Position numbers and translations under genes: made by a program. From assembly GCA_965222075.1 (NCBI GenBank), contig OZ244937.1, positions 4,480,001 to 4,544,000 of the forward strand: a stretch of DNA of 64,000 nucleotides, written 5' to 3'. The notes under the pieces are model-generated. The model had not been told where the DNA came from and searched no databases. It saw only the letters and a program-made list of their open reading frames with translations. The stretch comes from Candidatus Latescibacterota bacterium (GTDB lineage Bacteria; Latescibacterota; UBA2968; GCA-2709665). Numbering within the stretch: the stretch's first letter is position 1; every line of letters begins with the position of its first letter. Positions 1,646 through 37,214 of the stretch are shown here, in pieces.

Positions 1646-3079
1646 TTACTTTTCTCTGGCCTCTGTCTCTCCCACTGTCCATCGCAGCGCCTCAGCCACA
1701 ATCGCCAGTTCATCGGGCCGAACCGTTCGCAGGTCCAGAAACAATCGGTCCTCCCGAACATACCCCAAAACCGGTGGTGTGTGCCGTCTCAGACGGGCCG
1801 CCAGGTCTCCAACAGAGCGCCCGGGCCAGGATAGGGTCAACGCCGTGCTGGGGATCTCCTCCAGCGGGAGCGCGCCGCTGCCCGTTTGAGCGACCGAAGG
1901 CTCCAGGCCGAGCCGGACGCCCCGGTCCGTCAGGTCCGCCAGTCGCCTGAGCAGCCAGCCGCCCCGCCTCCGCAGCGATCCCGCAGGTTCGGTCAGCATC
2001 CGCAGCGTCGGGTGTTTCCGGAGGAGCGTCTTCCGGTTCAGAAACAGCTTCAGCGTGGCCTCTAAGGCGGCGTAGGTCAGCTTGCCGCAGCGCAGGGCGC
2101 GCATCAGCGGGTTCTGCCGAATCCGGTCCAGCGCCTCCCGCCTGCCCACCAGCAGCCCCGCCTGCGGCCCCCCAAGGACCTTATCCCCGCTAAAGCTTAC
2201 CACGTCGGCTCCCGTAGCAACGCTGTCGGACACAAGCGGCTCGTAGGGTAGCCCGTAATCCCGCAAATCCATCAGCACCCCGCCCCCTAAGTCGTGCGCC
2301 ACTGGAACCCCGTGCCGCCGTCCCAGAGCCACCAGTTCCTCTAAGGCAACCTCGGCCGTGAACCCCATCACCTTATAATTGCTTGGATGGACCGCCAGCA
2401 TCAGGCCGGTCCGGTCGCTCAGCGCCGCCTCAAAATCCCGCAGATGCGTCCGGTTGGTGGTGCCTACTTCCACCATCACCGCACCGCTTCGGGCCATGAG
2501 ATCGGGCATACGGAACGAACCGCCGATCTCAATCAACTGACCCCGGGAAACGACCGCTTCCCGGCCCAGAGCGAGCGTATTGAGCACAAGCAGCACCGCA
2601 GCGGCGTTGTTGTTCACCACACAGGCCGCCTCTGCGCCGGTCAGTTTACAAAGGATCTCTTCCACCAGTGCGATCCTGGCCCCCCGCTGCCCCGATTCGA
2701 GGTCTACTTCTAAGTTGCTGTAATAGCCTGCCGTATGTGAAATTTGCTTGAGGGCCGCCTTCGGCAGGGGCGCCCGCCCCAGGTTGGTATGCAGTACGAT
2801 TCCAGTGGCATTCACCACCCGAAAGAGACTGGGAGCAAGCGTCTCATCCAGACGCCGACGCACATCGTCCACCACCTGCTGGACCATTGCCTCACGGTCG
2901 CCCCCCACGGCCTCACCCCGGCCCATCGCCTCCCGGAGCGCATCGATACAATCGCGCACCAGCCCGGTTACCACGGGCGCATCAACCTGTTCAAACAATG
3001 CGCGTACCCCCGTTTCGGAAAGCACGCGGTCTACAGGCGGGATCACAGAAAAATCGGCCTGAGTCCTCGTCGCTGGCAA
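1646..3079 (-). CDS. selA: L-seryl-tRNA(Sec) selenium transferase (selenocysteine synthase)
   Basis: VVNATGIVLHTNLGRAPL, YSNLEVDLESGQRGAR, VVNNNAAAV, EIGGSFRMPD, EVGTTNRTH and the PLP-lysine motif FSGDKVLGGPQAG. Confidence 0.97.
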   Translation of the reverse strand: MPATRTQADFSVIPPVDRVLSETGVRALFEQVDAPVVTGLVRDCIDALREAMGRGEAVGGDREAMVQQVVDDVRRRLDETLAPSLFRVVNATGIVLHTNLGRAPLPKAALKQISHTAGYYSNLEVDLESGQRGARIALVEEILCKLTGAEAACVVNNNAAAVLLVLNTLALGREAVVSRGQLIEIGGSFRMPDLMARSGAVMVEVGTTNRTHLRDFEAALSDRTGLMLAVHPSNYKVMGFTAEVALEELVALGRRHGVPVAHDLGGGVLMDLRDYGLPYEPLVSDSVATGADVVSFSGDKVLGGPQAGLLVGRREALDRIRQNPLMRALRCGKLTYAALEATLKLFLNRKTLLRKHPTLRMLTEPAGSLRRRGGWLLRRLADLTDRGVRLGLEPSVAQTGSGALPLEEIPSTALTLSWPGRSVGDLAARLRRHTPPVLGYVREDRLFLDLRTVRPDELAIVAEALRWTVGETEAREK

Positions 3080-33763: not shown

Positions 33764-34699
33764 ATGCTCCTGGTCGGTGTGGCGCTGTTGCTGATTATTG
33801 TGGTTATTTTCGGTTTGACCGATGGGATCGGACGGCGGCGGAAAGAGGCGGCCTTTGACGCAGATCGGATGGCTGCGGAGGTGGCAAGCGTTACAGAGAA
33901 GGCTTTGGGTCTTTATGCCCAGAGTCGACGCCCGGTTGTGGGAGCCGTCCTCTTAGGGTTGATGGATCGGATAGGAGTGGACCGGGCGGTTGGAGTGGCA
34001 CATCTGGAACGGGTGGGATTCCCGTCCGATGGGCTGGTAGGCAGCGCCCCTCAGGGGAGGTCTCACCTGTTGGTCGTGCGTGCGGGAGAAGGCCTGGAGG
34101 ATGCCTTGGAACGGGCGATGCTCGTGGGCATCCAGGTGGCGCGCATCGATGACGACTATGCCTGTGTGGGGGACGATTATGCAGACCCGGAGGCGCTGGC
34201 GCGCCGGGCAGAAGCCGCAGAGATCGAGCTGTTTGGCGACGAGCGCCGGGAGCGCTATGCCCTCTACGAAAAGGCGGCGCTGGTTCTTCAGGATATGCTG
34301 CAGGACGACCCTGAAGGCGAACGGGGGGACATGATTCGGAACCTGCTGGAGGCCTTTGACGGGCGGATTGAATCGCTGCAGGCAGAACTGGAACAGGCCA
34401 TGGCAAAGGTGCCGGAGCCCGAGACGCTGGTGTGGGGCGATAGCCGGGACCGGCGGCTGTATTATTTCAAGATGGGGGTGACCAACTCCCTAAGGCGGAG
34501 CGGACACCTGCAAAGTCTGGGCCACCTCTACAGGCGCCAGGGTGTGAACTACGATGTGGAGGAGGCTTACGACTTGGCCGCGCAGGAATGCCCGCCGCTG
34601 GTGCTGGCCGGCCAGACCGAGATCGACCGGCTACTCAGGATGGGGCCTGCCGAGGTTCAGGGGCTGGTTCAACGGGCCCTGCCTGGAGACGACGGCTGA
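33764..34699 (+). CDS. Hypothetical protein with N-terminal membrane anchor
   Basis: Long ORF co-oriented in the operon; hydrophobic N-terminus; no motif recognised. Confidence 0.72.
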   Translation: MLLVGVALLLIIVVIFGLTDGIGRRRKEAAFDADRMAAEVASVTEKALGLYAQSRRPVVGAVLLGLMDRIGVDRAVGVAHLERVGFPSDGLVGSAPQGRSHLLVVRAGEGLEDALERAMLVGIQVARIDDDYACVGDDYADPEALARRAEAAEIELFGDERRERYALYEKAALVLQDMLQDDPEGERGDMIRNLLEAFDGRIESLQAELEQAMAKVPEPETLVWGDSRDRRLYYFKMGVTNSLRRSGHLQSLGHLYRRQGVNYDVEEAYDLAAQECPPLVLAGQTEIDRLLRMGPAEVQGLVQRALPGDDG

Positions 34700-34728
34700 A
34701 CGGGTTGGTGTAAAGAGGGTGGTGTCGT

Positions 34729-35859
34729 ATGTCCGAAAAGGTATCTGTGCTTTTTGTTCTGCCCGTTGGTTCGACAGAAGATGCCGCGGTTCAAGAGACG
34801 CTGCGAGGGATCTCGTCTCAGACCTATCCCTCTTCTCTGATTGAGGTGATTCGGGTCCAGTATGTACCGGCTGAGCCGGGGGCACGCACATCGGCGCTGA
34901 ACGCCGCGCGAGAGGGGGCCAGCGGGGCGTTTGTGGTCCATGCGGAACCGGGCGTGGTTTGGGATGGGAATAAGCTTGAGCAGCAGGTGCGTCGGCTTAA
35001 GGCCAGCCCTTCGGCAGGGGCGTGCGTGCACCGGATGACCGCTCGAAACAGCGATGGGAAGACCTGGGCGCTTGACCTGGGGGGAATACGCGCGTACGGC
35101 CCCCGCATCGGGTGTCTGCTGAGGTCGCCCTGGGGGCCTGGAGCGGCGATGCTTCAACAAGAGGTGATGGCGAGGGTGGGGGTCTACCGAAACGCAGAGG
35201 AAGTCCTGTGGGAGTATGCCATCCGCTTGGTGGAGAAAGGGCACGTTCTGGATCTCTTAGACGAAGACTTGGCGGTTTGGAACACAGATGCTCCGGTAGA
35301 GGAGCAGCGGCCCCTGGTGCCGGCACAGATCCGGTATGGGTTTTTAAAATCTCACCTGGACCGGACGTCACCGGAGGCCCTGTTTTCCAGCAAGTGCCCC
35401 GAATCGACCGGACGGCTCATACTGGCGGGACTTTATCAGAAGAACGACGATCTGGAGGCTTCCCATACCCTCTGCCAGGAAGCGGGCGGGCAGGCCGATG
35501 GCCCCGAGGCAAGCTACTGGCACGGGATTGTGCACCGGCGGGAACCCGATTTTTCCAATGCCAGGGGATGGTTTAAAAAGGCAGAAGGCCTGTCGGCCCT
35601 GCCCGAGATTTCTCGGGAGGTTGTGGCCTTCCTGCAGCGTGTGCTTCAAGTGCCCGACTACGGAGAGGCCCGGGAGGTGGCGCTGCGGTTTCTGCACCAC
35701 CTGCAGTCTCACGGGACGTGGGACCCCTTCTATTTTGTCGATTTGTGTGAGGCCTGCATGAGAGGGGGAACGACACAGGAGAGGCAGCTGCTGGAGAAGA
35801 CGCAGGAGATCGAATTCGACAGGATGTTTGACTGGACCTACCGGATGGCGACGGAGTAA
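34729..35859 (+). CDS. Degenerate GT2-like domain fused to a conserved helical domain of unknown function
   Basis: ISSQTYP..IEVI, ALNAAREGASG, WDGNKLEQQV (GT2-like); C-part ASHTLCQ...SYWHGIVHRREPDFSNARGWF. Confidence 0.7.
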   Translation: MSEKVSVLFVLPVGSTEDAAVQETLRGISSQTYPSSLIEVIRVQYVPAEPGARTSALNAAREGASGAFVVHAEPGVVWDGNKLEQQVRRLKASPSAGACVHRMTARNSDGKTWALDLGGIRAYGPRIGCLLRSPWGPGAAMLQQEVMARVGVYRNAEEVLWEYAIRLVEKGHVLDLLDEDLAVWNTDAPVEEQRPLVPAQIRYGFLKSHLDRTSPEALFSSKCPESTGRLILAGLYQKNDDLEASHTLCQEAGGQADGPEASYWHGIVHRREPDFSNARGWFKKAEGLSALPEISREVVAFLQRVLQVPDYGEAREVALRFLHHLQSHGTWDPFYFVDLCEACMRGGTTQERQLLEKTQEIEFDRMFDWTYRMATE

Positions 35860-36127
35860 AGGGAATGCGGCGCAGGAGTGGTGGAACCAGAAGCAGGGCG
35901 ATGCGCGCCTTCGGTCCGCTGTAGCTGGGGTTGCAGAGGGCCGAATAGCGCCAGACGCTGACCCCTTCCGGGGTGTAACTGCCGAAAAAGAGGATGCCGG
36001 AGTCGGTGATAGAGATCACGCTGACCAGGCGGTCTTCAGCATCGTCTCCGGGCACCCCGCTGATCTGCTTTTCGCTCGCGCTCGGAAACTCACCAGTACC
36101 GAACGGGTGACGGTTTTCAGATGTCTG

Positions 36128-36412
36128 TTATGCGTCCTTGTTTTTTCGGGACTTCTTATAAATGGGTTTCATGCGTTCGACAACTTCCTCATCGGTGGTG
36201 CATGAGGCGACGATTTGTGTGAATTCTTCCGCCGAGATGCCCAGTTCCTCCAGGAACCTTTTGTCTGCCCCTCACGGGTAGACATAATCTCCAATGGTCT
36301 CCCGGAGTTTGGCGCGCGCCTTGTCGGTGATGCGGGGCAGCCAGGAGATGCCCCCCATAGCAAGCATCCGGCTGCGGGGGCGGAAGTCGACGGCCGAGTT
36401 GAGTTTGTCCAT
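36128..36412 (-). CDS. DUF5069-family protein, predicted selenoprotein (Sec47), 94 aa
   Basis: AAGGAG RBS before ATG 36412. MDKLNSAVDFRPRSRMLAMGGISWLPRITDKARAKLRETIGDYVYP-TGA(36272-36274)-GADKRFLEELGISAEEFTQIVASCTTDEEVVERMKPIYKKSRKNKDA-TAA; family similarity continues on both sides of the TGA. Confidence 0.85.
36243..36258 (-). promoter_or_regulatory. Putative bacterial SECIS hairpin
   Basis: mRNA after UGA: GGGGCAGACAAAA-GGUUCC-UGGA-GGAACU. The stem GUUCC/GGAAC has a G-containing apical loop about 20 nt downstream of the UGA. Confidence 0.65.
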
Positions 36413-36575
36413 CAGATTTGCTCCTTTCACAGTGAAGTGATAATAGACTGGGTGTATCCCTTTATTTGATAATTTGATAACATAGGGAGTTTTGTGCCGA
36501 AAAGTCAAGGGTCCAATGGATGTCCTGGTCGGAGCGCGTTTCCACACCGATGGCCTCCCGGAGGGGTTATTCTCT

Positions 36576-37145
36576 TCAGGAGGTTTTGTATAGGGTTAAC
36601 GCGGTATCCCCGTACTCCTTCTGTTTGAGCATAGAGAGACGCGCGCATGCGGTGGGCAGGTCGAGTTGGGGGGTGTGTTGAAGCAGGACCACACCGGTTT
36701 CCCCGGCCAGGGCGGTCTGGCTGATGCGGATGAAGATCGAGAGGGCGATGGGGACGCCGTCGAGTTGCTGGTGATAGGGGGGGTCGAGGTAGATGGCGTC
36801 GAAGGGCATGCACTCTGCATCGAGCAGGGGGAGGAGTTTTTCGGCGGGTCGGGAGAGGAGCCGGATGCGGCCCTCGATGTCCCAGATTTTGAGCAGGTCG
36901 GCGATGGTGCGGCACCTGCGCCCCTCCGGTTCGTTCATCACCACCTTCGCACCCCGGCTGAAGGCCTCCAGTCCGATCTGCCCGGAACCGGCACAGAGGT
37001 CGAGAAAGCGCAGGCCGGTCAGGTCGCTGCCGAGGATAGAAAAGGCGGCTTCTTTGACCCTCCCGGAGGTGACCCGGGCATTTCCGTATTTTTTGATGTT
37101 GAAGGGGACGACGCGCCCTTTCAGGCTGCCGGTAATGATGCGCAT
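36576..37145 (-). CDS. rsmD: 16S rRNA (guanine966-N2)-methyltransferase RsmD
   Basis: MRIITGSLKGR, RVKEAAFSIL, FLDLCAGSGQIGLEAFSRGA, IYLDPPY, KEYGDT. Confidence 0.9.
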   Translation of the reverse strand: MRIITGSLKGRVVPFNIKKYGNARVTSGRVKEAAFSILGSDLTGLRFLDLCAGSGQIGLEAFSRGAKVVMNEPEGRRCRTIADLLKIWDIEGRIRLLSRPAEKLLPLLDAECMPFDAIYLDPPYHQQLDGVPIALSIFIRISQTALAGETGVVLLQHTPQLDLPTACARLSMLKQKEYGDTALTLYKTS

Positions 37146-37214
37146 CACAGGACTAAAAATACGCGATCCAGGACCCTTTGTCAATCTATTCCAGTATCTA
37201 AAAGCCCGCCGGGG

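Follow-up and report, generated by a model that had tools for sequence, protein, structure and literature searches.

Within the window (the whole stretch of DNA that was analysed, 64,000 nucleotides from Candidatus Latescibacterota), the minus-strand gene at 36412..36128 very probably codes for a genuine DUF5069-family selenoprotein in which the UGA of codon 47 is read as selenocysteine (Sec). Sec insertion, which had been proposed in the initial annotation, is very well supported at the sequence level by the alternation of TGA and Cys codons among orthologues, a coding-like stretch downstream of the TGA, a covarying hairpin and the full Sec machinery. A Pfam match and identical contigs from several sequencing runs point in the same direction. 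The features concerned are the following.

36128..36412, minus strand: CDS of the predicted short-form DUF5069 selenoprotein, 94 aa, Sec at residue 47, stop codon TAA at 36130..36128
36421..36426, minus strand: Shine-Dalgarno sequence AAGGAG, 8 nt 5' of the ATG, read from the sequence
36412..36410, minus strand: start codon ATG, read from the sequence
36272..36274, minus strand: predicted Sec codon UGA (codon 47), from the TGA/Cys alternation in orthologues and the alignment with the Cys of 3omd_A
36243..36258, minus strand: predicted SECIS hairpin, GGUUCC/GGAACU stem with the UGGA loop at 36252..36249, from the RNAalifold consensus
36479..36508, minus strand: sigma-70-like promoter match (TTGACT-18-TATGTT) from a consensus scan, weak and in itself not evidence of function
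36576..37184, minus strand: rsmD-type methyltransferase, the upstream neighbour (Pfam PF03602, E 7e-34)
1682..3049, minus strand: selA, selenocysteine synthase (TIGR00474, 566.7 bits against a cut-off of 267.9)

All elements of the gene that had been described are present, on the minus strand. A ribosome-binding site and an ATG are followed by 46 sense codons, the TGA, 47 further sense codons and a TAA. The context of codon 47 is YVYP-TGA-GADKRFLEELGISAEEF. As had been pointed out, the table-11 ORF list closes the frame at the TGA (ORF 36272..36547, minus strand). The plus-strand reading of 36128..36412 was also translated and discarded, as it gives no meaningful protein. The promoter consensus scan of the region returned three sites against 0.3 expected.

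The assignment to DUF5069 was confirmed with the Pfam profile. The read-through 94-aa product, with C written for U at position 47, matches PF16798 (DUF5069) with an E value of 2e-18 and 67.3 bits (gathering cut-off 27). The match extends over residues 12-86 and crosses the TGA; only profile positions 4-78 of 133 are covered, so that the protein is a short form. The only relative with a solved structure, the uncharacterised protein of PDB entry 3omd (Leptospirillum rubarum, 145 aa), matches with an E value of 2.5e-10, and the Cys of its YNCPLD motif aligns to U47. Compared to 3omd and to the full DUF5069, the window protein lacks the C-terminal third and is predicted to have Sec instead of Cys. 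The TGA was said to coincide with the conserved Cys of the family, and this agrees with a census of the residue-47 column in 167 domain matches from 148 representatives (the top 150 less two already fetched). Cys occupies the column in 116 of these matches, Ser in 29, Gly in five, Ala in three and other residues in eight, and in six the protein ends just before it. Ser is found mostly in proteins with two or three DUF5069 domains.

DUF5069 is a small family, with 416 clusters (E <= 0.001) in a library of 1.84 billion representatives. A protein-atlas search with a natural Cys homologue (P0004) returned DUF5069 clusters only (scores of 0.89-0.90, recognition below the useful level) and hence gave no lead on function. 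In a collection of 5.8 billion proteins, the near-length homologues are named 'hypothetical protein' only. They are Cys forms, forms with W at the site (P0005-P0008, P0011), as if called under a code in which TGA stands for Trp, or N-terminal fragments ending in ...YP (P0016-P0018).

The same genome codes for a 437-aa protein with three tandem DUF5069 domains (L009 1039..2352, minus strand). Cys (YNCPID) is present only in its middle domain, and the outer two have G-x-D-S-G at this position. Three tandem domains with the Cys in the middle one recur in many relatives.

The read-through protein was searched in 168 genomes of the same phylum (E <= 1e-12). Matches were obtained in 120 genomes, all within one class. 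By family, the numbers are 19/21 (f1), 29/31 (f2), 2/3 (f4) and 69/76 (f3), with the own genome excluded; at this threshold there was no match in the 36 genomes of the other ten families. The best locus was taken from each of the 120 genomes. Apart from L150, a full-length Cys paralogue of 139 aa, all are short forms (119 loci, 87-96 aa), of which one is truncated by a contig end. A comparison of related genomes for Cys/TGA alternation had been suggested, and the alternation was found at a single column: in the 119 orthologues from 119 genomes, codon 47 is TGA in 104, TGC in 10 and TGT in five. TGA forms occur in four families, and the identity of the orthologues to the window protein goes down to about 40%. 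From this comparison, the UGA at codon 47 behaves as a sense codon under selection, and it alternates only with Cys.

The comparison further establishes that a conserved, SECIS-like hairpin (6-bp stem, UGGA loop) accompanies the UGA forms. In the window, it was correctly described as a GUUCC-UGGA-GGAAC hairpin 3' of the UGA with a G in its apical loop. Its extent is GGUUCC-UGGA-GGAACU (36258..36243), beginning 13 nt past the UGA, and the loop begins 19 nt past it. When the window sequence is folded on its own, z is -0.76 for 66 nt, with 42 of 200 shuffles as good, and -0.65 for 45 nt (45 of 200). The hairpin alone is thus no better than chance, so that the window alone could not decide and significance comes from the comparison of orthologues only.

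For this comparison, 88 distinct 57-nt segments around the TGA were aligned without gaps (alignment A1). RNAalifold returned one helix, pairing columns 20-25 with 30-35 around the UGGA loop. Across the 88 distinct sequences of TGA forms, 527 of 528 cells are paired (99.8%). None of 500 shuffles matched the pairing or the covariation of A1, and when the helix partners are slid by one to three columns, pairing falls to 24-75%. Columns 20 and 35 form A-U in 48, G-U in 30 and G-C in 10 of the 88 sequences. Columns 21 and 34 form C-G in 45 and G-C in 43, with no sequence unpaired, but this flip follows the split of the two main clades and may be a single event, related genomes not being independent. 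A helix of seven pairs (with the additional pair 19-36) was rejected, as these two columns do not pair in 37 of the 88 sequences. In the 15 Cys forms (alignment A3), the same columns are paired to 75.6%, and 306 of 500 shuffles are as good. The folding and covariation analysis, which had been recommended, thus reveals a helix that covaries in TGA forms only and has decayed in the Cys forms.

The hairpin overlaps the conserved peptide FLEE, and the protein could account for part of the conservation. Against conservation driven by the protein, third codon positions are frozen at the hairpin only and in TGA forms only. The third-position diversity of the codons TTC CTG GAG GAA is 0.04, 0, 0.02 and 0, compared to a mean of 0.51. 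Of 103 complete TGA forms, 100 contain TTCCTGGAGG letter for letter, versus one of 15 Cys forms. As read by eye, 103 of 104 TGA forms keep FLE[EG], and the majority of Cys forms show drift, with FLQK, FLRE, FLQE and the like in its place. The FLE[EG] motif seems to be held by the RNA signal rather than by the protein.

The hairpin falls within the model of bacterial SECIS elements, as given in PMC13188914. The model has a loop of 3-9 nt with a G in its first two positions, a stem of 4-16 bp, 16-37 nt from the UGA to the loop and a minimum free energy of at most -7.5 kcal/mol. The UGGA loop, the stem of 6 bp and the distance of 19 nt are all within these ranges, and the 45 nt from the UGA onward fold with a minimum free energy of -11.8 kcal/mol. 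As in known bacterial genes of this type, such as that for formate dehydrogenase H of E. coli, an in-frame UGA is combined with a hairpin that lies within the CDS, Cys homologues exist, and selA, selB, selC and selD are present. The protein family is, however, a different one, the GUUCC-UGGA-GGAAC hairpin is unlike the E. coli elements, and Sec is predicted here.

The genome consists of one contig of 5.36 Mb. As had been stated, selA is encoded within the 64-kb window. The genes for selB (368.6 bits) and selD (374.5 bits), both above the curated cut-off, and for tRNA-Sec (selC, 74.5 bits, cut-off 47) are clustered outside the window at C1:3959749-3962940 (loci L001, L014 and L027). A lack of selB or tRNA-Sec had been named as an argument against Sec insertion; the genome has both. 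The selD gene has one in-frame TGA of its own, and from its sequence, selenophosphate synthetase is probably also a selenoprotein. Within the window, Rfam at gathering thresholds returned nothing and ARAGORN no tRNA, the tRNA-Sec being elsewhere in the genome.

The restriction of TGA forms to genomes with Sec machinery was confirmed in the same 168 genomes. A selB gene above the cut-off was found in 100 of the 104 genomes with a TGA form. The other four (G005, 80% complete; G041, 84%; G112, 98%; G122, 75%) all have a tRNA-Sec (62.6-73.5 bits), so that each of the 104 has selB or tRNA-Sec. Among genomes with a Cys form, selB was found in 12 of 15. The remaining three are members of genera g18 and g14, in which none of the searched genomes has selB. 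A tRNA-Sec search gave no match in the Cys-form genomes G098 and G059 and only a marginal one (50.7 bits, 86 nt) in G097.

By analogy with the established bacterial mechanism, SelB-GTP with Sec-tRNA(Sec) would bind to the hairpin (the SECIS) when the ribosome arrives at codon 47, and SECIS-bound SelB would deliver selenocysteine at this codon. The 94-residue product would then be made in full, with Sec47 in the loop before helix 48-57 of the structure model (see below).

It is very unlikely that the UGA is recoded without Sec, be it as Trp, Gly or Cys, by a variant code or by near-cognate suppression. Some metagenome pipelines do print W at this codon. Also, Cys insertion at UGA by the Sec machinery has been described for other selenoproteins when selenium is scarce. 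However, TGA serves as the terminal stop codon in orthologues of the phylum (e.g. L035, L040, L046 and L083), and the homologous residue is Cys and never Trp. Moreover, the SECIS-type hairpin travels with the TGA, and all genomes with a TGA form have selB or tRNA-Sec.

A pseudogene, with a nonsense mutation in a DUF5069 gene and either a 46-residue N-terminal piece or nothing being made, can practically be dismissed. Such a gene would be consistent with the ORF call ending at the TGA and with the public truncated versions (P0016-P0018 and the six that end before the residue-47 column). A decay of the half 3' of the TGA was looked for, as it had been named as a sign of a simple nonsense mutation. 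Instead, the mean pairwise diversity by codon position is 0.31/0.26/0.51 3' of the TGA, compared to 0.24/0.18/0.53 5' of it. This coding-like periodicity over the 47 downstream codons indicates that the second half is translated and under purifying selection, which rules out a nonsense mutation. No frameshift or further internal stop was seen in the 119 orthologues, and the TGA is kept in 104 of them across four families. In a 63-row alignment, the invariant residues are F10, P12, R13, R15, G20, W24, L25, R27, D30, K31, R33, A34 and Y43 in the N-terminal part and U/C47, A49, D50, F53, L54, F64 and D74 from codon 47 on. A 46-residue product would furthermore comprise only about half of the Pfam-matched domain.

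An assembly or sequencing error, with TGA in place of TGC or TGT, has a vanishingly small probability, with no observation in its favour, since not a single letter differs over 35900-36700 in the contigs from four public runs, which belong to three studies (though one DNA set may be the source of the window itself), and TGA is found at the same column in 103 other genomes. The TGA letter, for which a check in the raw reads had been advised, was thus verified on contigs. Contigs of 671 and 707 nt that span the whole gene come from two of the four runs, both of them RNA libraries whose description is that of sponge metatranscriptomes; such contigs are no proof of transcription.

Species-representative genomes were scanned as well. 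Relatives are encoded in 292 stretches, and the best 80 of these were retained. Among these best 80 of 292, the close relatives are labelled Candidatus Latescibacterota, with some labelled Gemmatimonadota or otherwise. Genomes of this one phylum carry various public labels: Latescibacterota, Gemmatimonadota/Gemmatimonadetes, Handelsmanbacteria and 'uncultured bacterium'. From the best 80 of 292, 15 loci with record titles that name another group, or none, were examined (six labelled Poribacteria, eight Chloroflexota and one Opitutales); one of them (L218, labelled 'uncultured bacterium') was counted as Poribacteria from its position in the tree. At the residue-47 column, 14 of the 15 have Cys. 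The remaining one (L216 1501..1740, from a MAG labelled Candidatus Poribacteria) is a TGA form and has the GUUCC-UGGA-GGAAC hairpin at the identical distance. The other five short forms of Poribacteria type that were examined are Cys forms, and the hairpin was absent from the three Poribacteria-labelled Cys forms in which it was sought. The TGA form of L216 could stem from gene transfer or date from an old Sec state. A tree was computed from 127 short forms and 90 columns, with the Sec/Cys column masked. At least five changes between Sec and Cys are needed on this tree, three of them forced by well-supported branches. As the tree is unrooted and poorly resolved (51 of 113 inner branches are open), gain and loss of Sec are not separable.

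DUF5069 is apparently a bacterial selenoprotein family that has so far not been listed. It was not counted among the classical families in the initial annotation, and no prior record was found in the sources that could be consulted. DUF5069/PF16798 is absent from Table 1 of the May 2026 catalogue of 119 prokaryotic selenoprotein families and subfamilies (PMC13188914). It is not among the nine new families in the available part of the deep-Sep paper (PMC12013277), and the available parts of PMC1794560 and PMC8318568 hold nothing relevant on a DUF5069 selenoprotein. The read-through protein matched none of the families of NCBIfam release 20.0 at E <= 1, including the NF04xxxx selenoprotein models. 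The full-text literature yielded no mention of DUF5069 or PF16798, although supplementary tables could hold an unnamed listing. Literature searches on Latescibacter* with selenocysteine, or on a selenoprotein in a domain of unknown function, returned nothing relevant, and the full-text matches for 3OMD all refer to 3-O-methyldopa. Other domains of unknown function, namely DUF3179, DUF166, DUF1573, DUF1858 and DUF523, are predicted selenoprotein families according to Table 1 of PMC13188914. Like DUF5069, they are recognised by the pairing of Sec and Cys forms and by a SECIS-like hairpin; they are, however, Pfam families different from PF16798.

An AlphaFold2 model, built with the 63-row alignment, is all-helical with five helices (mean pLDDT 78.4). 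Residue 47 is the last one of a loop (37-47), directly before helix 48-57. Foldseek against the PDB returned 3omd_A (TM 0.67 on the query, rmsd 1.7 over 70 columns) and beyond this no match below E 3; there was no thioredoxin-like match in this search or in Pfam. In the orthologues, residue 47 is embedded in the motif [YF][PF]-U-[GPASR]-A-D without a nearby Cys. Neither a thioredoxin fold nor a second Cys two residues from the Sec was found. The selenoproteins with a thioredoxin fold and a UxxC or CxxU motif (Trx, Grx, Prx-like, DsbA-like) also have a reactive Sec at the start of a helix. They differ from the window protein, which is all-helical in the model and has no conserved partner Cys. 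A second Cys (C71 in ASCTT) had been considered as a resolving residue. This role is not supported, because most orthologues have S, A or T in place of C71, which is not part of the invariant set.

The gene context differs between families, and no single neighbour is conserved across the 120 loci. The rsmD-type gene is adjacent in 38 of the 120 loci, all from f1 and f2, and its upstream position there is the one seen in the window. Loci of f3 have an APH-like gene (about 345 aa) upstream (61/120 loci) and genes for an FNR-like NAD-binding oxidoreductase and a GT2 protein downstream (40/120 loci each). This f3 cluster (loci L082-L149, e.g. L109 594..2783) is tight, with gaps or overlaps of a few bases, GT2 being a glycosyltransferase. 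Ten longer family members were scanned, and five of them are fused to another recognised domain: an AI-2E transporter, a NuoF-like FMN/4Fe-4S module, a methyltransferase and, in two cases, a cupin.

Selenocysteine is used almost only where cysteine is chemically active. Sec in DUF5069 would thus be a first functional handle, and residue 47 would be singled out as the reactive centre in a family with a solved structure (3omd) but no assigned role. In agreement with the initial annotation, residue 47 may be a catalytic residue. As the modelled fold is all-helical and not thioredoxin-like and there is no second conserved Cys, the protein is most likely a single-selenol reactive module. Among specific roles, we rank first, at a little short of probable, that residue 47 is redox-active or redox-sensing and either undergoes exchange with the thiol of a partner or depends on a flavoprotein reductase. 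The position of Sec47 before a helix, Cys as the commonest residue at the column, the FNR-like neighbour and the NuoF-like fusion were counted in its favour. A purely redox role is weighed against by 3omd being the sole fold relative, by the differing neighbours, the mixed fusions and the Ser in 29 of 167 domain matches.

It is possible, though somewhat less likely than this redox role, that residue 47 is not a redox centre and serves as a ligand of a soft metal or metalloid (Hg, Cu, As, Se) or as a persulfide or perselenide carrier. A single conserved Sec/Cys without a partner Cys would fit, as would the invariant D50 and Y43 and several Arg/Lys that are near residue 47 in sequence. Also, many of the bacterial selenoproteins catalogued in Table 1 of PMC13188914 are related to metals or metalloids. 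On the other hand, there are no metal-handling genes among the neighbours examined, and no metal-binding family was obtained in Pfam, NCBIfam or the fold search. When the two are taken separately, a metal or metalloid ligand is rather unlikely and a sulfur or selenium carrier slightly more so; what is left falls to some other function.

Returning to Sec47 in a single-selenol module, we consider a broader view of the family to be fairly probable. According to this, short-form DUF5069 would be an uncatalogued selenoprotein family and the most widely kept small selenoprotein of Latescibacterota (104 of 168 genomes, and the Poribacteria-labelled MAG as well). It would represent a new single-selenol kind (a redox switch or carrier, all-helical, with the Sec at a helix start and no partner Cys), which elsewhere is fused to flavoprotein, cupin, methyltransferase or transporter modules. 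The SECIS would dictate FLE[EG], which would drift once Sec has been replaced by Cys. The bacterial selenoproteome would thereby gain a family outside the thioredoxin fold. As the mechanism of Sec decoding is textbook knowledge, the advance lies in the inventory and in function-finding and not in a new principle. On the practical side, gene calling yields a truncated or mistranslated product in virtually all Latescibacterota genomes, namely fragments that end in ...YP or a protein with W at the site. With 104 Sec forms, 15 Cys forms and a hairpin decaying upon loss of Sec, a clean test set for SECIS prediction tools is available, which is equally suited to study how an RNA signal constrains the peptide that it overlaps.

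Two further observations concern the surroundings of the gene in the window. The ORF directly downstream (35573..36055, minus strand) matches only the C-terminal part of Thia_YuaJ/ThiT, a thiamine transporter family (profile positions 127-171 of 177, E 1.4e-8). It is overlapped by a plus-strand ORF of 376 aa, and a similar stretch is present in only three of the 120 loci. The ORF could be what remains of a gene, or a frame that is open by chance. The region 33764..35859 (plus strand) holds two convergent ORFs of 311 and 376 aa without a Pfam match, and the 311-aa ORF neighbours the DUF5069 gene in 16 of the 120 loci.
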